From a virus (taxonomy: Duplodnaviria > Heunggongvirae > Uroviricota > Caudoviricetes), in IMG/VR virus record IMGVR_UViG_3300017565_000001, positions 77,741 through 141,740 of that record: DNA of 64,000 nt; one strand, 5' to 3'. Positions within the stretch are counted from its first letter, which is position 1. Each line of letters starts with the position of its first letter. The notes beneath the pieces were generated by a model, which was not told where the DNA came from, ran no database searches, and worked only from the letters and a program-made list of their open reading frames with translations. This document shows, piece by piece, positions 9,287 through 27,770 of this stretch. The position numbers and the translations under genes were made by a program.

Positions 9287-9868
9287 ATGATCAAAATTTG
9301 CATTATTGGTAACGCTGGCTCTGGTAAGAGCACACTGGCTGGTAAGTTGTTCTCCGCACTTAAACCCAGTGGGGTTAACGTTGAACTGGTACCGGAATTC
9401 ATCCGCAATGACATCCAGATTAACGGTCCCATGCAAAGTGTGTGGGAACAGTACCGCACCCGCTTCAGCCAGAAGGAAATCGAAGATTCGCTCCCACCGT
9501 CAGTGGACTACGCAGTCATCGACTCAGGCACATTGACGCCATTCTTCTACACTTGTTTGTATTCCAACAAGGAAAACGAGCGTGAGCGTTTGGTTCTGCA
9601 GGACATGTATAAGTTCTTCCTGGACGACATTTACAAGCGCCGTTACGATTACGTATTTTTCCTGCCACGTGCGAAGACTTATGCAGCAAACCCCAACATT
9701 CTGACAGATGGAACCAGGTATCAGAGCGTTGACGAAATCGAAACCCTGGAAACGCATATGAATCTGTTCTTTGGCAATCTGCACAAGCTCAGCAATATTC
9801 ATGTGCTCAATTGTGAACTAGACGAACGTCTGGGAACTGTTTTGGAAATTATCGGCTATAAGGGCTAA
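9287..9868 (+). CDS. P-loop NTPase / nucleotide kinase-like protein
   Basis: Walker A IIGNAGSGKSTLAGKL at the N-terminus. 193 aa. Substrate unknown. Confidence 0.6.
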   Translation: MIKICIIGNAGSGKSTLAGKLFSALKPSGVNVELVPEFIRNDIQINGPMQSVWEQYRTRFSQKEIEDSLPPSVDYAVIDSGTLTPFFYTCLYSNKENERERLVLQDMYKFFLDDIYKRRYDYVFFLPRAKTYAANPNILTDGTRYQSVDEIETLETHMNLFFGNLHKLSNIHVLNCELDERLGTVLEIIGYKG

Positions 9869-9870
9869 TT

Positions 9871-10194
9871 ATGTCGTACCGTATGTTCATTGATGACGAC
9901 CGATTCCCTCCTGGGGATGAAAATGATTGGGCGATCTGCCGCAATCTGTTTGAAGTCCAACTGGTGATCGATCATGAGGGAATGCCATCATTCATCTCGT
10001 TCGACCACGACTTGGGCGCAAATCAACCGTCTGGTATGGACATCACTAAGTGGTTGGTTGAGTCTGAATTGGATGGAAAGCTTTCTTTTCCTGAGGATTT
10101 CGACTTTTACGTCCACAGCCAGAATCCCACTGGCGCTGGTAATATCGAGGGTCTACTTCGACAATATTTGCAACAACGCAAGATTGCACCTTGA
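9871..10194 (+). CDS. hypothetical protein
   Basis: 107 aa, acidic. Translationally coupled to the kinase gene. Confidence 0.45.
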   Translation: MSYRMFIDDDRFPPGDENDWAICRNLFEVQLVIDHEGMPSFISFDHDLGANQPSGMDITKWLVESELDGKLSFPEDFDFYVHSQNPTGAGNIEGLLRQYLQQRKIAP

Positions 10195-10251: not shown

Positions 10252-10548
10252 ATGACTGACACCACTCTCCAAAACCAGACCGTCACCAAGACCGCTACGA
10301 TCTCCTTGTGGAATCTGATCCTGCTGAATGACGATTTCACCCCGATCGACTTCGTGATGCAAGTGCTGATTGAACTCTGTGGCAAGACTGATCAAGAAGC
10401 ATACGCAATCACGATGGACATTCACAACACTGGGCGTGGCGTCGTTTCGACCTACACGGAAGAAATCGCCAAGCAAAAGGCCCACGACATCACGCTGATC
10501 GCCGCGCAGAACAAACATCCGCTCAAAGCGATCGCTGAAGAAGCATAA
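10252..10548 (+). CDS. clpS: ATP-dependent Clp protease adaptor ClpS
   Basis: LILLNDDFTPIDFVMQVL...HNTGRGVVSTYTEEIA...QNKHPL is collinear with the ClpS core (VILVNDDYTPMEFV...HYQGKAICGVFTAEVAE...ENEHPL). Confidence 0.85.
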   Translation: MTDTTLQNQTVTKTATISLWNLILLNDDFTPIDFVMQVLIELCGKTDQEAYAITMDIHNTGRGVVSTYTEEIAKQKAHDITLIAAQNKHPLKAIAEEA

Positions 10549-10633: not shown

Positions 10634-12205
10634 ATGTTAAAGTGTAGCCACAGAATAAGCTGTCAACCAACAATAAGAACAATGATTAGACAGAAAAAAT
10701 ACGGTAATGATTGGGCAATATTTTTGCCCTCGATTTCACAAATGTACGTTTTGGCACATGCAAAGGGCTGGGGTCGTATGCCAGTTGACTTTGATCTGCT
10801 GAACTTCGTTGATGAAGCGAACGCTCATCACTTCCACTATCCATACGCCCTGTATTCGGCCGGCCATGCTTACTTGGATCCCCAAAAGAGCAATGAACGT
10901 GAACCCATGATTCAAGGCCGTGATCGTACCAAGACGATTATGGTTGGTGACTCGGGTGGGTTCCAGGCCGCAACCGGCGTCCTGGATTTTGACTGGCAGG
11001 ATCCATTGAGCCAGAAGTCGATCGATCAACGCTTGGAGTTGATGCGCTGGCTTGAGCACACGGCCGAATACAGTATGGTTCTTGATTGGCCGGCTTGGGC
11101 TATTGACACTGGACGTCTGCCTCAAACCCTTATGGTTGCAGATCCCACGACTTCGCCCATGCAAGTCACGAACGATCCGTTCAACAACTGCTTGAAGGGC
11201 ACAATCTGGAACAATGAATTCTTCATCAAGAATCGCACACCAGGAGCCACCAAGTTCCTAAACGTTCTGCAAGGTCGTTCAATCGACGAAGCAAACGTGT
11301 GGTATGACGCAGTGAATCAGTTCAGCAGTGTTGAGAAGTATGGTGATCGAGCATTCGAGGGTTGGGCTCTGGGGGGTAGCACCGGGGGCGATCCCAGCCT
11401 CACCATGCGTCTTTTGATTCGACTGCGCGACGACGGACACCTTAATGGTGATGATCGCTGGATTCACGTCCTAGGGCGTTCCAGGCTGTCAACTGCCGTG
11501 TACTTGACGTCACTGAACCAAGCACTCAAACAACACGTAAATGAGAACTGTCAGATCAGCTACGACGCATCAAGTGCGTTCCTGTACTCGGTTAATGGCA
11601 CATACGTGACTGACTTCAATGTGTCACCCAAGCATATGGGTCTAGTGAGCGCTGACATTCCAATGGGTGCTCAATACGTGGGAAGCAAGGAACCCTTCAT
11701 CTATGCAGGTGTGTCTGCTGATCGTTTGGCCGATCCCACCCACTATAAGTCACCAGCCAGCAAGTTGCTGACTATGGGTGATTTGATTCTAGCTCCTGAC
11801 GAAAAGTCCAAGAAGCCATACAGGATGGATACTGCGTCCTACTATTACTTGATGGCGCATAATGTCCAGATGCAATTGAATGCTCTGGAATATGCAAACG
11901 CAAAACTGGACGCCCCCGATGCTGTGGATCATATTCCTGCCATCTTCCTGGAATTCAAGGACTTTGTGCATCGTTTGTTCACTACCGAAACGCCCATGGA
12001 TTTGATCGAACGTGAAGCTGGTAAGTTCAAGGATTTGATTTCTGGTGAGCGTGCTGGTGTTAGCGCACTGGAAAATCAAGAACTGTTCCCCAAGACAGCT
12101 GGTCTGGAAACGATCACGACTGACAACCGCGCCAAGAAGAAGGCACAAAAGCCGCCCAAGCCCGTGGAACCCACTAGTATGTTGGACGCTTTGCTGGCCA
12201 AGTGA
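10634..12205 (+). CDS. dpdA: DpdA-like DNA transglycosylase (tRNA-guanine transglycosylase superfamily)
   Basis: GDSGGFQ catalytic-Asp motif of TGT/DpdA. GWALGGSTGGD at the TGT GG-loop position. No CxCxxC...H zinc site, as in DpdA. Start likely at one of the ATGs at 10743-10790. Basic KKKAQKPPKP tail. Confidence 0.65.
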   Translation: MLKCSHRISCQPTIRTMIRQKKYGNDWAIFLPSISQMYVLAHAKGWGRMPVDFDLLNFVDEANAHHFHYPYALYSAGHAYLDPQKSNEREPMIQGRDRTKTIMVGDSGGFQAATGVLDFDWQDPLSQKSIDQRLELMRWLEHTAEYSMVLDWPAWAIDTGRLPQTLMVADPTTSPMQVTNDPFNNCLKGTIWNNEFFIKNRTPGATKFLNVLQGRSIDEANVWYDAVNQFSSVEKYGDRAFEGWALGGSTGGDPSLTMRLLIRLRDDGHLNGDDRWIHVLGRSRLSTAVYLTSLNQALKQHVNENCQISYDASSAFLYSVNGTYVTDFNVSPKHMGLVSADIPMGAQYVGSKEPFIYAGVSADRLADPTHYKSPASKLLTMGDLILAPDEKSKKPYRMDTASYYYLMAHNVQMQLNALEYANAKLDAPDAVDHIPAIFLEFKDFVHRLFTTETPMDLIEREAGKFKDLISGERAGVSALENQELFPKTAGLETITTDNRAKKKAQKPPKPVEPTSMLDALLAK

Positions 12206-12495: not shown

Positions 12496-12903
12496 TTGAT
12501 GTATAACAACCCCGTCCCCGTAGCTGTGGGGATTGTGCCAGTTTATGGCGATGATCAAACCGAACGCTTTCTGTTTATTCGCCGAGCAGTGGCACCAATT
12601 GGTGGTGTGGCTTGTGTGAGTGGGTACGTTGATGAACACGAATCCGCAGAACAAGCAATGGCAAGGGAATTCAAGGAAGAGGTTGGTATCGAGACTCTTC
12701 CAGAAAATTGGGTTGTGTTTGCCACCCGCTGCTCGGCGCACAATCGTCTGTTGGTATTCATGAAGCTAGTCAACTACCTGGTTCATGAAGATGACCTGAA
12801 TAGCTTTGTGCCCAATACCGAGGTTTCGGAAGTTCTAGTGGGCGATCGCCATACTGAACTTGTGTTCCCTTTGCAATCGGAAATTCTCAGCAAGCTCCCG
12901 TGA
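12496..12903 (+). CDS. Nudix hydrolase
   Basis: Nudix box GYVDEHESAEQAMAREFKEEVGI (GX5EX7REUXEEXGU). Confidence 0.8.
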   Translation: MMYNNPVPVAVGIVPVYGDDQTERFLFIRRAVAPIGGVACVSGYVDEHESAEQAMAREFKEEVGIETLPENWVVFATRCSAHNRLLVFMKLVNYLVHEDDLNSFVPNTEVSEVLVGDRHTELVFPLQSEILSKLP

Positions 12904-16686: not shown

Positions 16687-16929
16687 ATGTTCATAATAAA
16701 ACTGCTAGTAACAAAAGTCTCACCAGAAGGAAATATCTATCGCGCGATATTAGAATGGTGCAATCAAAATGATATTCCATTCCATGAAATAGGAATGGAG
16801 GCAGATGACTGGGATCATCGTATTCGGATGGGAACGGTGCAGATTACCAAGCTCACCCAATTCCAATACATTGAACTCGCGCATGTTCTAAATGGTGATT
16901 ATCAGGTCGAATTCAGGTATTTGCCATGA
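16687..16929 (+). CDS. hypothetical small protein
   Basis: 80 aa ORF. Ends VEFRYLP, a degenerate family motif. Confidence 0.4.
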   Translation: MFIIKLLVTKVSPEGNIYRAILEWCNQNDIPFHEIGMEADDWDHRIRMGTVQITKLTQFQYIELAHVLNGDYQVEFRYLP

Positions 16930-17186
16930 AAGTAATGAACATCGACGTGCTGGCATATGAAGACGAAGGGTTGGCGTTTATTGTTGATCTCGAAGATTTA
17001 ATTTTGAACGACTCGGCGTTCAAACACGTAAGAATAGTCAGATGCATAAATCGATATTCATACGAACGAACTAATCGCAAGTATACCATCTTTTCAAAAA
17101 TAACAGGCTTGAGTGACGAACAGATAGTGATGTTGACGTTGAAACATTCTGGAATCATCCAAATCAAAGTTAACCGTTTGCCCTAG
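16926..17186 (+). CDS. hypothetical small protein
   Basis: 86 aa ORF coupled by an ATGA overlap. Confidence 0.4.
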   Translation: MKVMNIDVLAYEDEGLAFIVDLEDLILNDSAFKHVRIVRCINRYSYERTNRKYTIFSKITGLSDEQIVMLTLKHSGIIQIKVNRLP

Positions 17187-17208
17187 GGCTTGACTGATAT
17201 GGCTAACG

Positions 17209-17490
17209 ATGCCATACTGCGAGCACTTTCATAAAGGATCCCAAATGTCCGAAGTTGACCACCTGAAGAACACCAAGACGAAGTCGCTGGAAGATGACAG
17301 CAAGATTTCGGAAGCCGAACTCCATGCAACTCATCCGCACATAAAAGAAGGTTGGGACGACCTGCAAGCTCTACGTCGTGAAATTGCGCTGAAGAAGCAA
17401 GAGGCCAGCCGCAAGGTCGACGCTGAATATAAGGAACGTCTCACTGAGTTGAGCGACAACTACGCTCTTCTGTTGACGATGTCGAGGTAA
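17209..17490 (+). CDS. small coiled-coil protein (cassette copy 1)
   Basis: Ends NYALLLTMSR, paralogous to the 24361 gene. Coupled by GAGGTAAGCATGTCG to the next gene. Start maybe 17245. Confidence 0.55.
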   Translation: MPYCEHFHKGSQMSEVDHLKNTKTKSLEDDSKISEAELHATHPHIKEGWDDLQALRREIALKKQEASRKVDAEYKERLTELSDNYALLLTMSR

Positions 17491-17492
17491 GC

Positions 17493-18569
17493 ATGTCGGT
17501 AACTATTCCCGAAAAGGTGTACGTGGGGTTTCAGGGTCGGCGCGATCAAGACGAAGTACCACTGGGTTTCATGACGCCGTACACGGATGACGAGGCTGGC
17601 AAGAAACGCCAGTCAACTGTTGATCAATGGGCTGGCGGTCGCAACTACGGCAAAACCAAGACGTTCAACAGTGTCATCATCGACAACGAACCCATGTATG
17701 GATTCCGACTGGGACGTGCGATTCGTCGTTCGGGCCACTTTGGCTCCGGTGCCTCGTATGTTCGTATCGAAGACCCCAGGGGCTTTGAGCTGGAAATCAG
17801 CATCGAGAACTTGGTTGCTATTCTGGAAGACGTTGCGATGGAGCGCTGTGAATTCGTGGGCGCTCTTATTTGGGGCCGTGTTGCCGGCAGTCAAAAGAAC
17901 CTGCTTATGGCGGTTGACAGCGATCTGTATCGTGGCGCAGTCAAAACCAAGGCAGCAGTTGCCCAGGCCCTCCCATGCAAAGATTTCAGTATTGGCGACA
18001 AGATCGAAGCAGTGACTGGTGAAACCGGCATCTACATGGGTATGCTGTATGGCGTATCTGATGGTTGGAAAGAGCCCGAAACCATGTCTGGCAAGAAGCC
18101 GGTACTGAAAGTCACGTATGATGACAATTCCGTAGAATACGTGGGGTTCGTGGATCTCAAGGGTTCCATCTTGGAGAAGCATACTGGTAATGCGTTGACG
18201 GTTCAGGATTCCGAAAACGAAATCGCTGCCGCCCTAGCCGTCAATCAGTTCATATGCGATTACAAGGGAACAACAGACGTTATCGCCTGGTTCGCCAAGA
18301 AACCACACATTATTTCTACCCACAAGGCAGTGGGTGAAGATCAAATGCACGTTCTGTTTGACAACGACCCGAGTTCATATTCGTATTTCAAATGTCGAGT
18401 AGGTTATGGCACGGAATACACTATGAAGCGCGATGACAATCGAGTGATTACGATTCAAAAATCCTATCACTATAGCAGTCAGCCCACCCATATCAATATC
18501 GAATGGGACAAAGTTGAACTCGCCGGCCATAAGATCAGCAGCGCGACTAATTCCGTCGACTATTTCTAA
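17493..18569 (+). CDS. hypothetical protein, paralogue L1
   Basis: Shares VYVGFQGRR...PLGFMTPY...KRQ.TVDQWA...FNSV...PMYGF.LGRAIRRS...ASYVRIEDPRGFELEISIENLV with the 18578 and 24603 genes. Confidence 0.65.
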   Translation: MSVTIPEKVYVGFQGRRDQDEVPLGFMTPYTDDEAGKKRQSTVDQWAGGRNYGKTKTFNSVIIDNEPMYGFRLGRAIRRSGHFGSGASYVRIEDPRGFELEISIENLVAILEDVAMERCEFVGALIWGRVAGSQKNLLMAVDSDLYRGAVKTKAAVAQALPCKDFSIGDKIEAVTGETGIYMGMLYGVSDGWKEPETMSGKKPVLKVTYDDNSVEYVGFVDLKGSILEKHTGNALTVQDSENEIAAALAVNQFICDYKGTTDVIAWFAKKPHIISTHKAVGEDQMHVLFDNDPSSYSYFKCRVGYGTEYTMKRDDNRVITIQKSYHYSSQPTHINIEWDKVELAGHKISSATNSVDYF

Positions 18570-18577
18570 GGAAGCAA

Positions 18578-19912
18578 ATGAACGAACTTTCCACCATCAA
18601 GATCCCGCAAACCGTTTATGTGGGCTTCCAGGGTCGTCGTGCAGTCGATGAGGTTCCTCTGGGGTTCATGACGCCCTATGATGAGACCAAGGCAGGCCAG
18701 AAGCGCCAGCAGACGGTTGATCAGTGGGCGAAAGGTTGGGGGAGTAACAAGACCTTCAACAGCGTGACTCTGGAAAACGTTCCCATGATCGGCTTCAAGA
18801 TCGGCCGGGCAATTCGCCGCAGTCGTTCTTGGGGTGGAAATGCTTCCTACGTGCGCATCGAGGATCCGCGTGGTTTCGAACTGGAAATCAGTATCGAGAA
18901 CATGGTCATGGTGATGGATCAAAACATCGTCGAAGACGGTGAGATCATGCAAGAGTGCGTGTGGGGCCGTGATGGTGGCAAAAACATTCTGTTGCCAACC
19001 AACAGCGAACCCTATCAGGCTTCCCTGAACACCACCAAACGCCTCAATGCCGTTCTGTCTCTGAAGGACGTCAAGCCGGGCAGCAAGGTGAAACTGGTGA
19101 CTGGTGAAACCGGTATCTATTACGGTTCGCTCTATCCAATCTTCATCAAACATGAAGCCGAACATACGGATACTCGTTCTGGTTACCGCCACGAACGAAA
19201 TACTACAGAGGTGTACACCCCGGAAATTCGTGGGACGAAACGGTACATTCTGTATACGTCGAAGGGTAAGAAGGGAACCTTCAACGTTTACGCAAGTATC
19301 AAAGTGGCCGAAGTTTTGGAGGAAGCCAAGGAAAAGCTCAAGCCCCAAGATGTCGAGAAGCTGATTGCCACAAAGATTGCCGAAGGCAATAATAAGTTTG
19401 TCAATCATGTAAGCTCGACCAGTTACTACGATCGATTCGTGGGATTGGCGGCCGATCAGACGCTTGACTACGCGATCGTCCAGAAAGACATTGCAGAAGA
19501 TTACGCAAAGACGTTGAAGCACAATCGATATGGAACGACTTACGCCAGTCGTTCCATCTACATGGAGAGTGCTGATGGTCAAATCTATACGGCCAGCAAT
19601 GGTTACATGGATTTCACAACCAACTTCCTGCAGGCAAAGAATACTCCGCGTAAGTATGCGAATATCATGCTGTGTCCGAATCCTGGCAGTTATTGGTCCC
19701 GACATGATGCTGAGATTGAAGTTCAAGGCGGTTTCATCGGCATCAAGGCTGATCTGACAGAAGAAAAAGTTACCGAGTACAAATTCCATCAGCAACAATG
19801 GCATGTGACTGATGAAGAGTTGAAGCGTCTGTTCGTGCTTGACGTGGTGATCAAACTGAAGAGTGGTGAACAATATGTCTATGACTTCGGACGTCAAGAC
19901 ACCGACGACTGA
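18578..19912 (+). CDS. hypothetical protein, paralogue L2
   Basis: N-terminal ~110 aa are near-identical in pattern to L1. 444 aa. Confidence 0.65.
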   Translation: MNELSTIKIPQTVYVGFQGRRAVDEVPLGFMTPYDETKAGQKRQQTVDQWAKGWGSNKTFNSVTLENVPMIGFKIGRAIRRSRSWGGNASYVRIEDPRGFELEISIENMVMVMDQNIVEDGEIMQECVWGRDGGKNILLPTNSEPYQASLNTTKRLNAVLSLKDVKPGSKVKLVTGETGIYYGSLYPIFIKHEAEHTDTRSGYRHERNTTEVYTPEIRGTKRYILYTSKGKKGTFNVYASIKVAEVLEEAKEKLKPQDVEKLIATKIAEGNNKFVNHVSSTSYYDRFVGLAADQTLDYAIVQKDIAEDYAKTLKHNRYGTTYASRSIYMESADGQIYTASNGYMDFTTNFLQAKNTPRKYANIMLCPNPGSYWSRHDAEIEVQGGFIGIKADLTEEKVTEYKFHQQQWHVTDEELKRLFVLDVVIKLKSGEQYVYDFGRQDTDD

Positions 19913-20183
19913 TTGTCCACTTTGTGGTCGAACCCTGGGACTAGTGAATGTGGACAAGCACCACCTCACTCCAAAGTCCCAGGGTGGACATGACAAATTC
20001 TTGATTCATCGTATTTGTCATCGGAAGATTCATGCCACCTTCACTGAGAAAGAATTGGCGCGATCCTACAATACCTGGGAGTCGTTGAAAGCACATGAAA
20101 TGATCCGAGCGTTTGTGGAATGGGTAGCAAAGAAGCCTCCTGAATTCTATGACGGATCGGTATCGAGCAAACGCAAGCGTTGA
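19863..20183 (+). CDS. HNH endonuclease
   Basis: CPLCGR...DKHHLTPKSQGG...HRICHRKIH is an HNH/zinc-ribbon nuclease motif. Confidence 0.7.
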   Translation: MVNNMSMTSDVKTPTTDCPLCGRTLGLVNVDKHHLTPKSQGGHDKFLIHRICHRKIHATFTEKELARSYNTWESLKAHEMIRAFVEWVAKKPPEFYDGSVSSKRKR

Positions 20184-20208
20184 CTCCATGTTCATTTGGT
20201 GCCATAAT
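20180..20208 (+). promoter_or_regulatory. sigma70-like promoter TTGACT-N17-CATAAT with a TTCATTTGG spacer box
   Basis: Sequence read directly. Upstream of the 20235 gene. Confidence 0.5.
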
Positions 20209-20234
20209 GTGGTATCAAGATTAAGGAGCAAACG

Positions 20235-20552
20235 ATGAATTCCTATTCCCACCTCTACTGGTTTTATGCAATGATCAACGTTCAATGGGGCAAACAAGCC
20301 ACAATCAAACGTGACTCTCTGCATAGCCGGTACGAAGTGAACCAATGGGGAATCGATGTAACAGTTCCAGGTCTTACGGCAAGCAAGATGCGCGAAGTTC
20401 TGGCTACTAAGCTTGTGGCTGCTGGTTATACGGAAGATGCAAGTGTGGGTTCGCATCGCGTATTTGCGAAGCGAATTGGCAACGAGCGCCGACATGTTTC
20501 ATTGAGTGGTTACGAAAAAACCCTTCACATTTGGGCAAAGGTTTATCATTAG
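20235..20552 (+). CDS. hypothetical protein
   Basis: 105 aa ORF with RBS AAGGAGCAAAC. Confidence 0.5.
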   Translation: MNSYSHLYWFYAMINVQWGKQATIKRDSLHSRYEVNQWGIDVTVPGLTASKMREVLATKLVAAGYTEDASVGSHRVFAKRIGNERRHVSLSGYEKTLHIWAKVYH

Positions 20553-20609
20553 AAGCTTGACATTGTGGCCACTAGGGGCCAAAATGATTGAACAAACAAG
20601 AAGAACAAT

Positions 20610-21266
20610 ATGGCACTATCATTCTCAGGCCAATTCTTTATGGCCATGGTCCTTGACCGTAATGCACCTAACGAATTTCACGTATCTGTATGGGAACTCG
20701 CCCAGCCACAATTGGCGCAGAAGGCGACCTATCTCAAAGTGAAGGGGGACGATTCTCGGTACCATAAGGCTATCGCCTTTGAACATGAGGCTGACTTCCA
20801 AGCCTTTAATTCATGGTGGAACGAGTACAAGCTGCTAGTCGGCGATGCCATCAAATATCGAGCACTTCCGGAACCTGGAGATGGTGAAGTCATTTCAGGT
20901 GTCATGGTGAAGCATAATCCACATGCGGAGTGGGGGCGAGATCGTTTCCCTACACCTGATGAGTTTCTGGTGGAGTGGTCTTGGATCGTTGAAACTTGCT
21001 CAAGTAAGGTGTGGTGGACACCCTGCCATTGGATCTTCCAAAGCCAGGAAGAAGCAGTCATGTTCAAACTGCATGACGAAGGCAATAAGCGTAAGGACGT
21101 CACCAATGACAATTACGACCCCTACAGGTTTAGGCACGATTATCAACTTGACTCGTTCTCCTCTGAATGTTATGATATGGACGATGAAGGAGAGCAGGAT
21201 AGTCCTATGAGTTTGGAAGATCTCATATCTAGACAATTAAAGAAGAGACCAACTGATTGGCTGTAA
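20610..21266 (+). CDS. FKLRF-motif family protein (large member)
   Basis: FEHEADFQAFNSWW and SQEEAVMFKLHDEG, plus an acidic tail. Homologous to the 27144 and 23638 genes. Confidence 0.55.
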   Translation: MALSFSGQFFMAMVLDRNAPNEFHVSVWELAQPQLAQKATYLKVKGDDSRYHKAIAFEHEADFQAFNSWWNEYKLLVGDAIKYRALPEPGDGEVISGVMVKHNPHAEWGRDRFPTPDEFLVEWSWIVETCSSKVWWTPCHWIFQSQEEAVMFKLHDEGNKRKDVTNDNYDPYRFRHDYQLDSFSSECYDMDDEGEQDSPMSLEDLISRQLKKRPTDWL

Positions 21267-21288
21267 AGAAGGGGAGCATATGCTCCCC
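21267..21288. terminator. bidirectional intrinsic terminator
   Basis: AAGGGGAGCATATGCTCCCCTT between convergent genes. Confidence 0.6.
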
Positions 21289-21292
21289 TTCC

Positions 21293-21911
21293 TTATGGTA
21301 ATCCGTGCAAACCAGAAAACGGTGCGTACCAGTAATTGAGTTTGTTCTCACCAGGCCGATCACGGTCAGGAGCATAGAACGTAAACCCGTCATGCAGCCA
21401 CTCTTCAAAACTGAGAAGTGGCGACAGATTGCCAATAGCCCAGTCACGGGCGTGGACAGCCAAGAAGTCACAACGAAGGTTGTATACGGTCTTGTCATGA
21501 CCTTTGACCTTCACGAACCGACTGTTCTTCAAGTATTCCAGACAGTGGTTGATTAGGTCCTTTTCGGCCTGATAGAACGTCGCGCACACGTTCTTCAACC
21601 GCTCGATCGTGTTGGAGTTCTGCAGTTTGCCCGTCAAAACACACGAACGATTGACGTCGCATACCGCACTGTCGTCGGTGTAGAACGTCAGCTCGTGGGG
21701 CATATGACCCGATTCCACCAGGTATCGGACTGACTCCACGAATGCTACCTTTTCATGGTAACCCGAATGCTTGGGTTGAGCTCGAGCATGACAACCGAAG
21801 CGTTCGACTGCCTGATCACCAGTAAGGGCAACCATACCCCATGACAACAGACATTCCTTGCTCTGATAGTGACGGGCCGAACCACCATCCATGTAAACAA
21901 TAGTATGGGCC
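21293..21911 (-). CDS. rnhA: ribonuclease H
   Basis: IVYMDGGS (first catalytic Asp motif). VKVKGHDKTVYNLRCDFLA resembles the RNase HI C-terminal VKGHAGHPENERCDELA. ORF is open to 21940. Confidence 0.75.
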
Positions 21912-21914
21912 ATA

Positions 21915-22151
21915 TTACTGCCAGAGTGCGGACTTACCATCCGTGTATTCGATGGTTTCGGGCATGTCTTCGGATTTCACTTGCGTGATGATGTTCTTCG
22001 CGAAATAAACGATGAACATGCCGGGCTGCGAAGGGTTGCGTTGAACTTGGCAAGCCTTGCCAGCCTTGTACGTCTTCGTGGTTCCGGTTCCGATCACTTT
22101 TGCAACCAGTTCCTTCTTGGTTTTTGCGGGGCGGGGTGCAGCGTAGCTCAT
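21915..22151 (-). CDS. hypothetical basic protein
   Basis: 78 aa ORF. Confidence 0.4.
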   Translation of the reverse strand: MSYAAPRPAKTKKELVAKVIGTGTTKTYKAGKACQVQRNPSQPGMFIVYFAKNIITQVKSEDMPETIEYTDGKSALWQ

Positions 22152-22225
22152 CTGGATTTCTCCTTGTTCATCATGTTTTGTATTATAGATGAATGTTCAT
22201 ATGAAGTAAAGACTTTTCACCACAT

Positions 22226-22260
22226 GAAAAAAGAGCGGTGGGATTTTCGCCCCACCGCTT
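22226..22260 (-). terminator. intrinsic terminator for the CCA-enzyme gene
   Basis: AGCGGTGGG-N8-CCCACCGCT stem. On the minus strand it is followed by a T6 run. Confidence 0.6.
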
Positions 22261-22352
22261 AAGTGATGAACTACCTTTCGCAAACCGCAGCTATGCAATG
22301 AGGAGCAAAGCTACTAGACCGCATTCTAGCGGCCCTATTGTGAAACGCAAGC

Positions 22353-23567
22353 TTACATGGTTTGATTTTGCATATATTGCAACAAAGCCTCACGTGACAC
22401 GTTGCAATCGTTGTAGAACCAGTATTCCCGCAGGCGCTTCAACGCCGCACCCAAGTCAGGACCAGGTTTCACACCCAACGCCTTTAAGTCATCACCACTG
22501 ACCGGAAACGTCGCTAATTGAAACTTACCGTCCAGGCCTCGCTTCAGCAAATTAACGGCGTAGTCAACATCAAAGTAAACTGCCGCGGCAAAAACCAACT
22601 CCAGCTTCCGCCCCATGACGAAATACTGATACAGGATTTCGGTCGCAGTGACAGCGTAGTCATATGAGACGATGTGCTTGACTACGTCGCGTTCAGCGGA
22701 ACGCCATTTCAATGCCTTGGCAGTTTGCTCAACATGTGCTTCATCGCGCATGAAAGGTGCGAGCAAAACAGCCGCCTGATTACCAAGCATGTGCCGAGCC
22801 ATACTGTCGTGCAACTTTTTGAACCATTCCATGGACGCGGAATCACCGTTAGGCAGAGCAGTATGCTCACTCAAACCCATCTCCATCATGAGGGGATAGA
22901 TCCAATAGCCGCTGAAATGTTCGAGGATCTTGGATGTTTCAGTCCAGATCCGTTCGACACTGATGCCACGCAATCCATGAACACAGTTGCGGATTTCTTG
23001 CTCGGGCAATATGGACTTCAGCTTTTCAGGATGCGGTTGCACTGGATGCATACGGCCCAAGAAACGAAAATAGCGCAAGATGCGCAGATAGTCTTCCGTC
23101 ATACGACCTTCTGCATCACCAACAAAGCGGACGATTCTGTTTTCCAGATCAGCTTGGCCGCCGAAAGGATCCAACAGATTGCCGTCGAAATCAAGCGACA
23201 TTGCATTGATGGTGAGGTCACGACGTGACAAGTCTTCAACCCAGTCACGAGTGTAGGTCATCTTAGCGTAACGGCCGTCGTGCTCGTCCTCAGTACGCAG
23301 ACTGGTGATCTCGTAGGATTCATCCTCCAGAACTACAGTCAGTGTGCCATGCTGCAAGCCCGTTTCCACATACTTGATGCCATGCTTCTGATACAATGCC
23401 AATTGCTCATCAGGGAAGGCGTCAGTGCAGAGGTCCACGTCATGGGGCGGCTCGTTGTTCAGATAATCTCGCACACACCCGCCAACCAAACGCAGGTCAA
23501 AGCCCTCCTGTACGAACAAGTCGCGCAGCGCACGCAAGGGAAGAGGTATCATTTGATTGAGGTGCAT
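22353..23567 (-). CDS. cca: tRNA nucleotidyltransferase (CCA-adding enzyme), class II
   Basis: GGCVRD head motif and RDLTINAM. 404 aa. Confidence 0.85.
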   Translation of the reverse strand: MHLNQMIPLPLRALRDLFVQEGFDLRLVGGCVRDYLNNEPPHDVDLCTDAFPDEQLALYQKHGIKYVETGLQHGTLTVVLEDESYEITSLRTEDEHDGRYAKMTYTRDWVEDLSRRDLTINAMSLDFDGNLLDPFGGQADLENRIVRFVGDAEGRMTEDYLRILRYFRFLGRMHPVQPHPEKLKSILPEQEIRNCVHGLRGISVERIWTETSKILEHFSGYWIYPLMMEMGLSEHTALPNGDSASMEWFKKLHDSMARHMLGNQAAVLLAPFMRDEAHVEQTAKALKWRSAERDVVKHIVSYDYAVTATEILYQYFVMGRKLELVFAAAVYFDVDYAVNLLKRGLDGKFQLATFPVSGDDLKALGVKPGPDLGAALKRLREYWFYNDCNVSREALLQYMQNQTM

Positions 23568-23637
23568 GTGATCTCCTAAGTTTCATCTAGTATATAGGTA
23601 ACCCTGCCAGTAATCAAGTGAAGCTACAATTTCTTTA

Positions 23638-24321
23638 TTGACGATATGGCACATACCGTGCATTATGACTGGCATGAACATCCTATCCAAACTTTTCTAT
23701 TTCCTTACCGGCCAGTTCAACATCCGTTTCAAGACTCGCTATGATGAAGACAAGTATGATCCTTGTGAGGGTGAGACGCTTATTGCCGATGACTACATCA
23801 GTTCTGAGATTGAAGATCAAGATGGAGAATTTGATTTCCTGACTCTCAATGATCGCTTGCATGACGGGCGCCCACTCTTGACGGTAATCAATCATCTTAT
23901 GACGGATGAACTCAAATTCCACATTGCTGTATGGTGGAAGCAAGCGGTTGTTGATCGATCCGCCTATACGTTCTTCATTCATCGAGTTGACGGTGATCGT
24001 TATTTGATGATGATGACTGACAACCAGCAAGCCAAAGACGATGCAAGCGCTTGGTTTGCGGATTATTTTGCCAAGTTTCAGGACGACAAATATTTGGAAC
24101 AATTCGTTCCGGCCCTTCCGGATGGGGAATTCCATGGCCACGTATTGTTCCGTAATACGTATGAAGATCCCAATCCACCAACGATCTTCCAAACGTGGAC
24201 TTATATTTTGACAAACTTCCACGGCAAAGTTTATCGTACTCGCTTGGATCGGCATCGAGACATCTTCTACTTTGAGGACGAAGCTGAACTCCTAATGTTC
24301 AAAATGCAGTTTGTCAAGTAA
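23638..24321 (+). CDS. FKLRF-motif family protein (large member)
   Basis: C-terminal FEDEAELLMFKMQFVK. Confidence 0.55.
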   Translation: MTIWHIPCIMTGMNILSKLFYFLTGQFNIRFKTRYDEDKYDPCEGETLIADDYISSEIEDQDGEFDFLTLNDRLHDGRPLLTVINHLMTDELKFHIAVWWKQAVVDRSAYTFFIHRVDGDRYLMMMTDNQQAKDDASAWFADYFAKFQDDKYLEQFVPALPDGEFHGHVLFRNTYEDPNPPTIFQTWTYILTNFHGKVYRTRLDRHRDIFYFEDEAELLMFKMQFVK

Positions 24322-24360
24322 TACCCAGATACAAATACAACTACAAAATAATAAGAACAA

Positions 24361-24600
24361 ATGTCTGAAGAATACCTTAAAAGCGCCAGAGCGGCTGGCG
24401 CTGCTACCTCCAACGTAACTGAAGCAGAATTGATGATCACTCGCGAAGAAATTCGCGAATCCTGGGAAGCCCTGGAGAGCGTTCGTCTCAAGATCTATCA
24501 AGCAAAAATTGACGCGGTAAATGGTGTCGATTCTCAGTTCCATGATGAACTCAAGGATGCCGAAGCCAATTACGCAATGCTCCTTCAGTTGTCGAGGTAA
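24361..24600 (+). CDS. small coiled-coil protein (cassette copy 2)
   Basis: Ends NYAMLLQLSR. Junction GAGGTAATCATGTCA matches the copy-1 junction. Confidence 0.55.
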   Translation: MSEEYLKSARAAGAATSNVTEAELMITREEIRESWEALESVRLKIYQAKIDAVNGVDSQFHDELKDAEANYAMLLQLSR

Positions 24601-24602
24601 TC

Positions 24603-25796
24603 ATGTCAGTCAATCATAGTATTCAAATTCCCGATCAGATGTTTGTGGCTTTCGTTCGTAGCAATCAGGATGGCTACGTCCACAAAGGTTATACCATTCC
24701 CTATGGCACTGACTCAGCTTCCAAGAAGCGCCAACTCAACTTGCGGCATTCAACCCATGCCGATCGTGAAGGTGGGCTTGAGCCAGTAGTCTTGGAAAAT
24801 AAACCCATGTACGGGTTTAAGATTAGCCGCAAGCTTCGAGCAAACGGCTGGCGTTCTGATATTCAAACCGTTAGCATCGAAGATCCCAGAGGTTTCGAAT
24901 TTGAAGTTTCGGTTGCCAATCTGATCATGCTTACCGACAGCAATTTGATTCATAATGGCGAAATTATTCAGCAATGTGTATGGGCTCGCGATGGTGCAAT
25001 CAACATTTTGCTTCCAATCAATAGCCAACCATATCTGGATGCCGTTGTGAACACTGAGCGGGTATCCAAGCGAGTCAATACTCGATCGGTAAAACCAGGC
25101 AATAAGGTTCTCCTGCATGATGGCATTAAGGGTGTTTACATGGGTTCCATGTATACCATCATGCGTGATTACAACCGCAACTTGAGCATTTCACAAAAGA
25201 AGAAACACATCGTTCGTGTTGAAGGCGATAGTGGTACTTCGGTGGAATATCATGGTTACCCAACAATGAAAATTTCCGAGGTGTTGGATTCCACTCCCCA
25301 AACCAAAGAAGCATTGAGCCAACAGTTGGTGAATGACATCAAGGATAAGACGGTTACATTCCGGAAAGTCACGTCTGGCTATGGGCATGTGTCAACGCTC
25401 ACGTATGGTGACACCTTGATCTTTGCCAAGAAGGAACGGCGGTCGATTTCATACGATGAAGCTATGAAAGCCAAGAGCAACAGTTCGATTTTGGGCGTTT
25501 ATGATGACGAATGTTACCTGATCGAAGGCAACAGTATGGACCCCAATTATCGGTCTTATTACTACCGAAGCCTGGGAGTTGATGAAGTCCAGGCTGTGAA
25601 GATCAACGTATTTGCTTTGGATAAAGGCACGATTGAAATTGTTCAAGAGTACAATATCAACTCATCAAGTTATTACCGTAGTAGGGAACAGAAAACCTAT
25701 CAGATCAACAAGGATGAGATTGACTATTTTGTCTTAGAGTTGACGCTTAAGGATTCTGAGACCAACGTCAACTTCCACGTTAACGATTTGAAATAA
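24603..25796 (+). CDS. hypothetical protein, paralogue L3
   Basis: PMYGFKISRKLRANG...SIEDPRGFEFEVSVANLIMLT is collinear with L1 and L2. Confidence 0.65.
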   Translation: MSVNHSIQIPDQMFVAFVRSNQDGYVHKGYTIPYGTDSASKKRQLNLRHSTHADREGGLEPVVLENKPMYGFKISRKLRANGWRSDIQTVSIEDPRGFEFEVSVANLIMLTDSNLIHNGEIIQQCVWARDGAINILLPINSQPYLDAVVNTERVSKRVNTRSVKPGNKVLLHDGIKGVYMGSMYTIMRDYNRNLSISQKKKHIVRVEGDSGTSVEYHGYPTMKISEVLDSTPQTKEALSQQLVNDIKDKTVTFRKVTSGYGHVSTLTYGDTLIFAKKERRSISYDEAMKAKSNSSILGVYDDECYLIEGNSMDPNYRSYYYRSLGVDEVQAVKINVFALDKGTIEIVQEYNINSSSYYRSREQKTYQINKDEIDYFVLELTLKDSETNVNFHVNDLK

Positions 25797-25837
25797 TGAG
25801 CCACACCTCCCATGTAAATAGCCTGGGAGGTGTTCAT

Positions 25838-26413
25838 ATGAACAAGCCAATCATTTATATCCATGGAGCTTTTAGTACCAAACAAAGCTTCAATTGGATA
25901 GTAGAAAAATTACCCGAGCATCGTGCATATTTTATCGAGTACGACGCTAGGGATTCAGTAAAAAGTGTGGCAAAACGAGTCAATACCCTAGTTGAAGAAT
26001 TGGGCGGAGCCGACATAGTGGCTCATAGTCTGGGTGGGCTGGTAGCTTTGTTAGCGGCACTTGATAATCCTTTGGTGGGGCGGGTGATAACAATCAGCGC
26101 ACCAATGGGTGGTAGTGATGTAGCTGGAACATTGGCATGGTTGAGTCCGCACGAGCTGTACCAAAGCTTGAACAAGATGGGCCCAGTCATAAGAAAGATT
26201 CATTCATCTAACATTTCTTTCCCACTCTGTAGTATAATCACGACTTCTGGTGGTAGCCCAATGATTAGTGGCGCCAACGACGGAGTAGTATCAGTACAAA
26301 GCCAGAAGGCATTGACTGGTACTCGTCAAATTGAAGTGGACTTGAATCACTTTGAAGTGTTGATGAACAACAATGTGGTTACACTCATAAGGGAGTTTCT
26401 GAATGGTGCCTGA
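25838..26413 (+). CDS. alpha/beta-hydrolase (lipase/esterase-like)
   Basis: IYIHGAF and GHSLGG nucleophile elbow. RBS GGGAGGTG before the ATG at 25838. Confidence 0.65.
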   Translation: MNKPIIYIHGAFSTKQSFNWIVEKLPEHRAYFIEYDARDSVKSVAKRVNTLVEELGGADIVAHSLGGLVALLAALDNPLVGRVITISAPMGGSDVAGTLAWLSPHELYQSLNKMGPVIRKIHSSNISFPLCSIITTSGGSPMISGANDGVVSVQSQKALTGTRQIEVDLNHFEVLMNNNVVTLIREFLNGA

Positions 26414-26891
26414 ATTCATCATGTTGATTGGTTTGCCTGGGTGTGGGAAGTCGACCATCATCAAACTGATCCGCGAGGTGAAGCCCCATCAAGAATATGT
26501 GGTGACAAGTTCAGATAATATGATTATGGAATATGCTGCCAGAAATAATCTGAACTACCGAGAAGCACACGACGCCCTCGATCCCATAGTGCTTCGTAAC
26601 ATGCTGATTGAACAAGCGGCTGAGCTGTTCAGCCGTAATATGTCCATCATCAATGATCAAACGAACTTGAACGATGACATCCGTAAGGCCAAACTGGCAA
26701 TGGTGCCACAACATTACATCAAACGCGCTGTGGTTATCAAGAAGCCCATTGATGTCATCCTGCGCCAACAGAATTCCCTCGAACGCTTGGCGCAAGGGAA
26801 AACTATCCCCAGTGAAGTAATGAACAAAATGATCTCCGAGTTCACTGATCCTGATCCCAAGGATTTTGATGAGATCGTAGTCGTACAGTAG
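26403..26891 (+). CDS. P-loop kinase (AAA_33/PNK-kinase-like)
   Basis: MLIGLPGCGKST Walker A at the N-terminus. 162 aa. Confidence 0.6.
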   Translation: MVPEFIMLIGLPGCGKSTIIKLIREVKPHQEYVVTSSDNMIMEYAARNNLNYREAHDALDPIVLRNMLIEQAAELFSRNMSIINDQTNLNDDIRKAKLAMVPQHYIKRAVVIKKPIDVILRQQNSLERLAQGKTIPSEVMNKMISEFTDPDPKDFDEIVVVQ

Positions 26892-27143: not shown

Positions 27144-27770
27144 ATGAATTTGGTTATGGTTCCGCCACCTTTCGCTGTGGGAAATGGTCGAATTATGGGT
27201 AACGGCATATCAGCCGAAATATACAACCACAACCCAGATGTGATAGTGCATACGTCCGGCCAAGGATCGGTTATGGGATACGGTCGAGTCAACTCTATTA
27301 CGAGTACAGACACCTTTCATTATGACCCAATGGCCGATTACAAAAGTTGGTATGGGTTGGAAGCATCTAGCGTCTTCACTATGATGAACGACGACGAAAT
27401 AATGGCAAGGGTATGGGATCGTTCTGAATTCAACCAATGGTTAGCCCAAAATGTAAAGGACTTGGTGCTAGTTCAGCGTCATTGGCCATCTTGGGTGCTA
27501 GTATTCAAAAGCGAAGCAGATTACCATTCCTTTATTACCTGGTGGACTTATACCGAAAAACAAGAGAAGATGTTCTTACCAATACCGGCTGAATATCAAG
27601 GTAAGAATTACGTGTTCATTCGAGAACTCAAGGAATGGTGTGATGCCAATCTTGTTGACAAATTTGAGCTCGCAAGTCAATCCAGTCGGGTGAAATGCAC
27701 CATCAGAGATCCCCAGGAAGCAGTTATGTTCAGGCTTCGTTGGTCGGAACCAAATAATAACCAACTCTGA
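27144..27770 (+). CDS. FKLRF-motif family protein (large member)
   Basis: FKSEADYHSFITWW and DPQEAVMFRLRW. Confidence 0.55.
   Translation: MNLVMVPPPFAVGNGRIMGNGISAEIYNHNPDVIVHTSGQGSVMGYGRVNSITSTDTFHYDPMADYKSWYGLEASSVFTMMNDDEIMARVWDRSEFNQWLAQNVKDLVLVQRHWPSWVLVFKSEADYHSFITWWTYTEKQEKMFLPIPAEYQGKNYVFIRELKEWCDANLVDKFELASQSSRVKCTIRDPQEAVMFRLRWSEPNNNQL

Follow-up and report, generated by a model that had tools for sequence, protein, structure and literature searches.

The locus described here raises a question of both origin and function: how did a large phage come to carry three versions of a protein that almost all sequenced phages possessing it have only once (380 places in 374 records), and what might this protein be doing there? 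The stretch analysed, hereafter the window, is 64,000 nucleotides long (positions 77,741 to 141,740 of the IMG/VR record IMGVR_UViG_3300017565_000001, a member of the Caudoviricetes) and is part of a contig of about 424.5 kb. Its element of interest is a two-gene cassette, in which a small protein (S) precedes a large one (L), and which occurs twice: locus A consists of S1, L1 and L2, and locus B of S2, L3, a hydrolase gene and a PNK/PSTK-like kinase gene (Table 1). We find that the copies are ancient and maintained by purifying selection, that the family belongs to phages, and that its genes recurrently adjoin those of RNA repair. On these grounds we tentatively suggest that S and L might form an accessory module for RNA/tRNA repair or translation protection in large phages, a reading which we hold to be possible rather than probable.

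A preliminary description of the sequence had proposed that the cassette is duplicated, and this was borne out by pairwise BLASTP and by tblastn of each protein against the whole window, which returned three L copies and two S copies and no others; all five open reading frames (ORFs) were confirmed in place. L1 and L2 are 55% identical over their first 187 amino acids (aa; E 2e-69), L2 and L3 31% over about 436 columns, which is their full length (E 2e-49), and L1 and L3 27% (E 2e-31), whilst S1 and S2 are 36% identical over 81 aa (E 2e-14). The large proteins do share an N-terminal domain, as had been noticed, yet it is about 190 aa long and not about 110. The divergence reported to follow it is equally real as far as the faster change of the C-terminal half is concerned, but these halves are not unrelated, since the alignment of L2 with L3 runs through to both ends. 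In profile-profile comparison a link between the C-regions persists over their first 100 to 125 residues or so (74% probability between L2 and L3, 46% between L1 and L2), and 126 of 166 C-regions of the family fall in one BLAST-linked cluster. Across orthologues, the first ~190 residues of L are 66-76% identical and the remainder 30-50%; in comparison with locus L004, a 122-kb contig from a more distant relative, the values are 75% for the N-domain and 30% for the C-half of L2, and 74% and 33% for those of L3. L thus evolves at two rates, with a conserved N-domain and a faster-changing C-half.

Faster change gives no sign of diversifying selection here. The ratio of nonsynonymous to synonymous substitution (dN/dS), computed between the window and the relative L048, whose L2 is 88% identical, is 0.03 for the N-domain of L2, 0.16 for its C-half, and 0.04 for both L1 and S1. 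All the parts measured are under purifying selection and no value comes near 1; the notion of a diversifying module, put forward in the preliminary description, is not supported.

The age of the copies can be read from the relatives. L004 has the gene order S, L (354 aa), L (446 aa), HNH, then further on a CCA-adding enzyme, and then S, L (405 aa), hydrolase and kinase, with one-to-one orthologues that are 64% (L1), 50% (L2), 53% (L3) and 73% (S2) identical to those of the window. Since L004 carries the same tandem, the copy that gave L1 and L2 predates the split between the two. Two further contigs, of 523 kb and 290 kb, carry two S-L loci each, some 9-12 kb apart, and together with the layout of L004 this indicates that the two-locus state predates the whole clade. 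Likeness between the copies at the DNA level is nearly erased (67% over 317 bp, 71% over 82 bp), and a search for near-identical DNA to positions 17000-26000 among 50,697 phage records returned no match. The duplications are old, and the paralogue expansion has been maintained. A separate curiosity is a patch of 23 bp, 96% identical between L1 (18012-18034) and L2 (19097-19119) against the 67% background and encoding VTGETGIY in both, which could reflect strong constraint or a small gene conversion.

The order and spacing of the genes bear the marks of translational coupling. The S1 stop codon lies 2 nt ahead of the L1 start, with a GAGG within the last S1 codons. The two S/L junctions (GTCGAGGTAAGCATGTCGG and GTCGAGGTAATCATGTCAG) are indeed near-identical, as first reported, with the common form GTCGAGGTAA-G/T-CATGTC, because the protein ends are conserved (...SR and stop on one side, MS... 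on the other) and because the GAGG ribosome-binding site lies inside the last codons of S; the junction is a signature of translational coupling and not a recombination scar. The ribosome-binding site of L2 (AAGGAAG) overlaps the L1 stop. In locus B the TAA of L3 shares one base with the ATG of the hydrolase gene, the next two genes, for hydrolase and kinase, have 11 nt in common, and S2-L3 heads a tightly coupled operon of four genes, a unit kept in L004, L010 and L012. As for S1, its true start is most likely not the first codon of the ORF but Met13 at 17245, since the orthologues begin there and the promoter-like match at 17190-17218 covers the first ATG of the ORF.

S itself is a compact and apparently always independent protein. 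The AlphaFold2 model of S2 (predicted local distance difference test, pLDDT, 84) consists of helices at residues 4-16 and 21-27 and a single 50-residue helix at 29-78; at the level of sequence, S/T-E around position 20 and a C-terminal ...AK..A...A..(P)Y/F......Y-A-hydrophobic-L-x-L are conserved. S1 matches the hidden Markov model (HMM) of the family with E 9e-38. The family comprises at least 193 clusters at 90% identity, all of 77-105 aa, with no member fused to another domain. In most of the loci examined, L is immediately preceded by an S-family ORF of 77-87 aa (33 S matches around 54 L matches), separated from it by 0-36 nt or overlapping it, and the two are translationally coupled in many lineages; the pair is also present in the Sinorhizobium phage Phosso and in a 547-kb contig. 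Upstream of the distant L homologues of XacN1, PA5oct, Hakuna, L023 and L027, S was not detected even with an iterated HMM, and unrelated small ORFs stand in its place.

Neither protein resembles anything characterised. As single proteins, L and S match nothing in Pfam, NCBIfam or PADLOC, and across 49 diverse L members there is no PADLOC match and no consistent Pfam match, the sole anti-defence hit being one member with a weak likeness to Tad2 (E 0.035). Invariant over these members are R43, N67, G72, F73, D96-P-R-G-F100, N108, W129, R131, N136, L138 and three glycines, a set with no histidine, no cysteine and no P-loop. The AlphaFold2 model of L2 (pLDDT 88, predicted TM-score 0.74) is mostly beta and has no fold match in the PDB, where sequence and profile searches also gave only noise; in the viral structure library BFVD, Foldseek found uncharacterised phage proteins only (E 1e-20 to 1e-8), including W.Ph. 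gp153, P100 gp62 and proteins of Atu_ph07 and fHe-Yen9-04. The strand-helix order of the N-domain resembles an OB-fold barrel, and there are weak structural matches to OB-folds, SSB, RPA and LEF-3, all with scores below significance. Of the OB-fold proteins compared (SSB, RPA, PriB, baculovirus LEF-3, EF-P domains), none gives a significant match or any sequence similarity, and L is much larger than they are, with further beta-rich domains. L was also considered as a ligase or nucleotidyltransferase on account of weak Foldseek matches to a Naegleria RNA ligase, and rejected, with TM-scores of about 0.1 and no ligase motifs. A host-range role, which had been entertained at first, or a structural one finds no backing: nothing in the PDB or BFVD links L to capsid, tail or fibre proteins beyond noise, the N-domain maps to no known structural fold, and the L homologue of PA5oct, gp276, has no note of detection by electrospray-ionisation tandem mass spectrometry (ESI-MS/MS), whilst several neighbours in the same record have one.

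The family as such is not new to databases, where it is spread over orphan PHROGs and hypothetical proteins. Through the N-terminal domain, each of L1, L2 and L3 has matches to four PHROGs without a known function (phrog_2475, 6266, 30990 and 14061; E 1e-29 to 1e-11, with 3e-24 to 3e-19 for L1 against 30990, 2475 and 6266). Their members are similar to L in overall size (280-480 aa) and are all annotated as hypothetical or of unknown function, and only some of them have a recognisable S partner. In tblastn, L is found in 374-383 of 50,697 phage records, invariably labelled a hypothetical protein, the carriers comprising Pseudomonas Pakpunavirus, Otagovirus and PA5oct, Bastille-like Bacillus phages, Lak megaphages, RaK2-like phages, XacN1, RsoM2USA and Phosso. 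The same N-terminal domain is recognised, by sequence or predicted fold, in PA5oct gp276, PaoP5_141, RaK2 ORF485, XacN1 ORF119, Phosso 511, Bacillus phage W.Ph. gp153 and Listeria phage P100 gp62; the literature on PA5oct gp276 and on dispensability in PaoP5 yielded nothing useful. An N-domain profile matches 3,432 clusters at 50% identity (3,039 at E<=1e-10), and among the best 150 of the 3,432, which are proteins of about 200-480 aa, the domain stands at the N-terminus throughout and is never fused to other domains. By comparison, only two L matches came out of a pattern scan over 185,579 species-representative genomes of bacteria and archaea, both on scaffolds of metagenome-assembled genomes (MAGs) and probably mis-binned phage. 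One of them, on a scaffold from an archaeal MAG labelled Candidatus Pacearchaeota (L059, JAFCGA010000001.1, 244,767 bp), probably is a jumbo-phage contig. This near-absence from cellular genomes fits a function on the side of the phage, and not one in host defence or as a toxin-antitoxin.

What hints at RNA repair is the company that L keeps. A Pfam scan of 137 flanking genes from non-redundant loci recognised, among others, proteins like the C-terminal domain (CTD) of ribosomal L7/L12 (8 matches), topoisomerase IV subunit A (7), Thg1, RlaP, T4-type RNA ligase and NUDIX (3 each), other RNA ligases, Rv2179c-like exoribonucleases, class II tRNA synthetases and AAA_33 (2 each), SmpB (1) and NAD-salvage enzymes. 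In 37 of 59 loci, L has an RNA-repair gene no more than about 6 kb away, and it adjoins such genes in at least six separately sampled groups of loci. In L034/35, L037 and L038, RlaP immediately precedes L, stop and start abutting or overlapping, and in L027 it is also upstream, at a distance of 346 bp. Thg1 is about 750 bp from L in L023 and L043, and in L042 the two genes abut. The RNA ligases flanking the module are of three types, with an OB-plus-RNA_ligase-type enzyme upstream of S-L in L019, a T4 Rnl1-type one 79 bp downstream of the module in L033, and another RNA ligase 544 bp downstream in L026/44; XacN1 has the order RNA ligase, small ORF, L. A CCA-adding enzyme lies between loci A and B in every relative of the window clade; in the Phosso clade it precedes S-L by about 5 kb. 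In the window, the hydrolase of locus B has palmitoyl-protein thioesterase as its best PDB match (E 4.5e-5) and the kinase L-seryl-tRNA(Sec) kinase (E 1.6e-6). Genes for tRNA or transfer-messenger RNA (tmRNA) are found within 6 kb of L in 8 of 50 loci.

Jumbo phages are known to carry conflict islands of this type, combining NAD/ADP-ribose (ADPr) processing with RNA repair (PMC7824862). The genomic setting of L matches that of the RNA-repair islands in this survey, with neighbours often translationally coupled to L; the survey's section on RNA repair makes no mention of the L/S family, and neither protein has a counterpart among the described components of the T4 Pnkp/Rnl1 and jumbo-phage repair systems. 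On the left of locus A the window carries, as assigned by orthology with L004, genes for AAA_28 (9287-9868), cRec (9871-10194), ClpS (10252-10548) and NUDIX (12496-12903) proteins. The initial suggestion of counter-defence fits such a location in an island of conflict and RNA-repair genes.

If the association is taken at face value, S-L would be part of a toolkit for RNA/tRNA repair and translation protection in large, mostly virulent phages. L would be a cytoplasmic, beta-rich protein absent from the virion, whose N-terminal ~190 aa may provide the core activity, either by binding RNA such as damaged tRNA or by docking to a repair enzyme, whereas its fast-evolving C-half may set specificity towards an RNA species, a lesion or a host nuclease. 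S is assumed to bind L, and translational coupling would keep its output in step with that of L. The paralogues could then be specialised, non-redundant factors that arose from ancient duplication of the module in this phage lineage, much as specialised and non-redundant roles are proposed for the multiple RNA ligase paralogues of jumbo phages (PMC7824862). Such a role for L would be alike, by functional analogy only, to that of an accessory or specificity subunit beside repair enzymes. Ro60/TROVE and Archease are non-catalytic accessory factors of RNA repair of this kind, and they share no sequence or fold similarity with L. A bolder form of the proposal is that S-L represents an unrecognised, phage-specific class of repair and translation-protection factors with a new fold, in which the N-domain binds damaged tRNA, a repair enzyme or a host anticodon nuclease, the C-half dictates which RNA or nuclease is addressed, and the paralogue sets of jumbo phages act against several RNA-targeting defences; taken as a whole, we consider this version somewhat less likely still.

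A number of observations weigh against the RNA-repair proposal. Although the neighbourhood places L among RNA-repair genes in several lineages, no known catalytic or RNA-binding domain was found in it: Pfam, NCBIfam and PDB sequence searches recognised no ligase KxDG, no P-loop kinase, no 2H, HD or HAD phosphoesterase, no TROVE and no Archease domain. Its fold has no significant match, and the N-domain is not consistently basic (median isoelectric point, pI, 6.4 for the family and 5.4 for L1). The window itself holds no homologue of the RNA ligase, RlaP and Thg1 seeds used. Many distant members, among them those of Pakpunavirus, Bastille-like Bacillus phages and PA5oct, have neither S nor an annotated repair neighbour, and genes of DNA and nucleotide metabolism also occur next to L (topoisomerase IV in 7 loci, thymidylate synthase in 3, DNA ligase in RaK2 and PA5oct). 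The neighbourhood evidence carries an ascertainment bias too: in jumbo phages the accessory genes lie in clusters, and Pfam recognises only a few of them, repair enzymes included. Many of the sampled loci, moreover, come from related phages.

The first of the alternatives is that L is a general counter-defence protein unrelated to RNA, its N-domain serving as a scaffold and its C-half inhibiting a host immune effector, with the paralogues directed at different effectors and S as a co-factor. The rapid change of the C-half, the expansion of paralogues, the restriction to phages and the setting among genes of NAD/ADPr processing and conflict (cRec, NUDIX, NADAR, NAPRTase) would all suit such a protein, and so would the metallo-beta-lactamase-fold hydrolase encoded near L in Bacillus phages, which we presume could be an Apyc1-type enzyme. 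However, the dN/dS values are well under 1, the C-halves of L are still homologous and not swapped, the 49 members gave no anti-defence match but the Tad2-like one, and work on RNA is the more specific reading of the translational coupling with RlaP, Thg1 and kinase genes. We regard this explanation as unlikely. Somewhat less likely again is that L is an accessory of DNA replication or repair, for instance a novel single-strand- or end-binding protein working with ligase and topoisomerase. The weak OB-fold-type matches would agree with it, as would the DNA ligase directly downstream in RaK2 and nearby in PA5oct, the topoisomerase IV subunit A gene adjoining L in the Phosso clade and the thymidylate synthase downstream in three loci. 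Against this, every one of the structural scores is below significance, the topoisomerase gene is convergent and therefore not co-transcribed with L, many large phages do without the family, and a core replication factor would not usually come as three diverged paralogues with variable C-halves.

The coupled translation and the order of the genes also recall type II toxin-antitoxin operons, in which case S would be a small upstream antitoxin and L a large downstream toxin, or the pair a device of superinfection exclusion. This we find very improbable, given that genomes of bacteria and archaea hardly contain the family (the two matches in 185,579), that S consists essentially of a single long helix and lacks a DNA-binding fold, that L2 has no S of its own and many lineages have L but no S, and that neither PADLOC nor Pfam finds a toxin.

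There remains the HNH gene at the border of locus A, on which the preliminary description had based a nuclease-mediated duplication. Its overlap with the end of L2 stands, only shorter than reported, as the most likely start is 19875 and not 19863, which leaves an overlap of 38 nt. The protein matches the NCBIfam model HlpB with E 7e-17 and 62 bits against a curated cutoff of 130, and is therefore a relative and not an equivalog; it has the CxxC...HH...H motifs of the small HNH proteins of the Bacillus subtilis HlpB/YisB type (~100 aa) and no extra DNA-binding domain. The gene is found at the same place in L004 and L048-L050 (81-90% identity) and on the opposite strand in L009, whereas no homologue was detected in the stretches sampled from the 523-kb and 290-kb relatives, and in the former an unrelated protein follows L instead. 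Both the arrangement and the HNH gene are conserved where L orthologues are 50-88% identical, and DNA of the copies is at most 71% identical over short stretches, neither of which is the pattern of a homing-endonuclease cassette; the gene is a small resident with no tie to the duplication, not a sporadic homing endonuclease. That the module is a mobile cassette recently spread or duplicated by this enzyme, for which the overlap of the two genes would speak, is thus hardly tenable and already contradicted, as relatives with 50-64% identical orthologues share the gene order and the HNH site, the DNA of the copies has diverged, the enzyme is itself conserved, and the two-locus layout also exists in the two larger contigs, in whose sampled stretches no homologue of it was detected.

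Table 1. Positions of the cassette genes and of associated features in the window
Feature	Coordinates	Strand	Remark
Sigma-70-like promoter match ahead of S1, TTGACT-17-CATACT with TG	17190..17218	+	Consensus scan only
S1, small all-helical partner protein, 81 aa	17245..17490	+	ORF as called mechanically opens at 17209
L1, large paralogue, 358 aa	17493..18569	+	
L2, large paralogue, 444 aa	18578..19912	+	Tandem copy without its own S gene
Small stand-alone HNH protein, HlpB/YisB-like	19875..20183	+	ORF from 19863; Pfam HNH E 2e-4
CCA-adding tRNA nucleotidyltransferase, between both cassettes	22353..23567	-	L004 orthologue has PolyA_pol and PolyA_pol_RNAbd
S2, small all-helical partner protein, 79 aa	24361..24600	+	
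L3, large paralogue, 397 aa	24603..25796	+	
Alpha/beta hydrolase, coupled to L3	25796..26413	+	Pfam Abhydrolase_6 E 9e-7
AAA_33 P-loop kinase, PNK/PSTK type	26403..26891	+	AAA_33 carried by the L004 orthologue

Other features of these loci were observed in passing. A second family of paralogues accompanies the cassette: 20610-21266 and 23638-24321 share a domain of about 130 aa (92% in hhalign), to which 27144-27770 is linked more weakly, and no member has a Pfam or PHROG match. Its members can be directly upstream of S-L, as 23638 is ahead of S2 and as two tandem copies are before S in L010 (L010:4277-5685), and PA5oct gp275, directly upstream of the L gene of that phage, matches the C-terminal ~55 aa of the family (E 0.001-0.002). 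The stretches listed for the family also include L001:3780-4001. The small ORFs preceding S1 (16687-16929 and 16926-17186) are possible members, by a likeness seen by eye only. The cassette may therefore have a third recurring member. In eight Phosso-like loci the position immediately upstream of S-L is taken by the L7/L12-CTD protein, of 140-170 aa (best E 1.5e-8; for example L056:7300-7755, L057:7327-7749 and L002:3189-3710). The tmRNA genes a few kb from L are at L023:10430-10759, L043:10376-10707 and L032:30-467, and in L032 nine tRNA genes lie directly upstream of L. Just past the CCA-adding enzyme gene of the window, a strong hairpin on the minus strand (22234-22259) resembles an intrinsic terminator, with a stem of 10 bp including 7 GC pairs and a T-run. 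Further away, the 523-aa ORF at 10634-12205, which falls in no Pfam family, is better conserved than any other large gene of the region (~90% identity to its L004 orthologue, against 42-80% for its neighbours), and a GGDEF gene, diguanylate-cyclase-like, occupies 28165-28803 (56% identity in L004). A phage IMP dehydrogenase gene at L031:4637-5875, with CBS domains and a Hint_2 match, may carry an intein.

In conclusion, the genes themselves are already on record, and what is undescribed, as far as our searches reach, comprises the conserved partner S, an architecture that evolves at two rates, the confinement to phages, the repeated coupling to RNA-repair enzymes and the expansion of paralogues in this clade of jumbo phages. 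Pfam has no model of the family, and no structure of it or similar to it has been solved; its carriers include phages of relevance to therapy and experiment (Pakpunavirus, PA5oct, Bastille-like phages, Listeria P100), which makes gene deletion and pull-down feasible. Should the link to RNA repair fail, S-L would still be a clean case of an ancient and maintained paralogue expansion in a widespread orphan family of phages. Should it hold, the gene pair would add a component to phage RNA/tRNA repair, a main escape route from anticodon nucleases and other translation-targeting immunity. And if the bolder proposal of a distinct class of factors were true, its more than 3,400 clusters would place it among the larger uncharacterised components of phage counter-defence.

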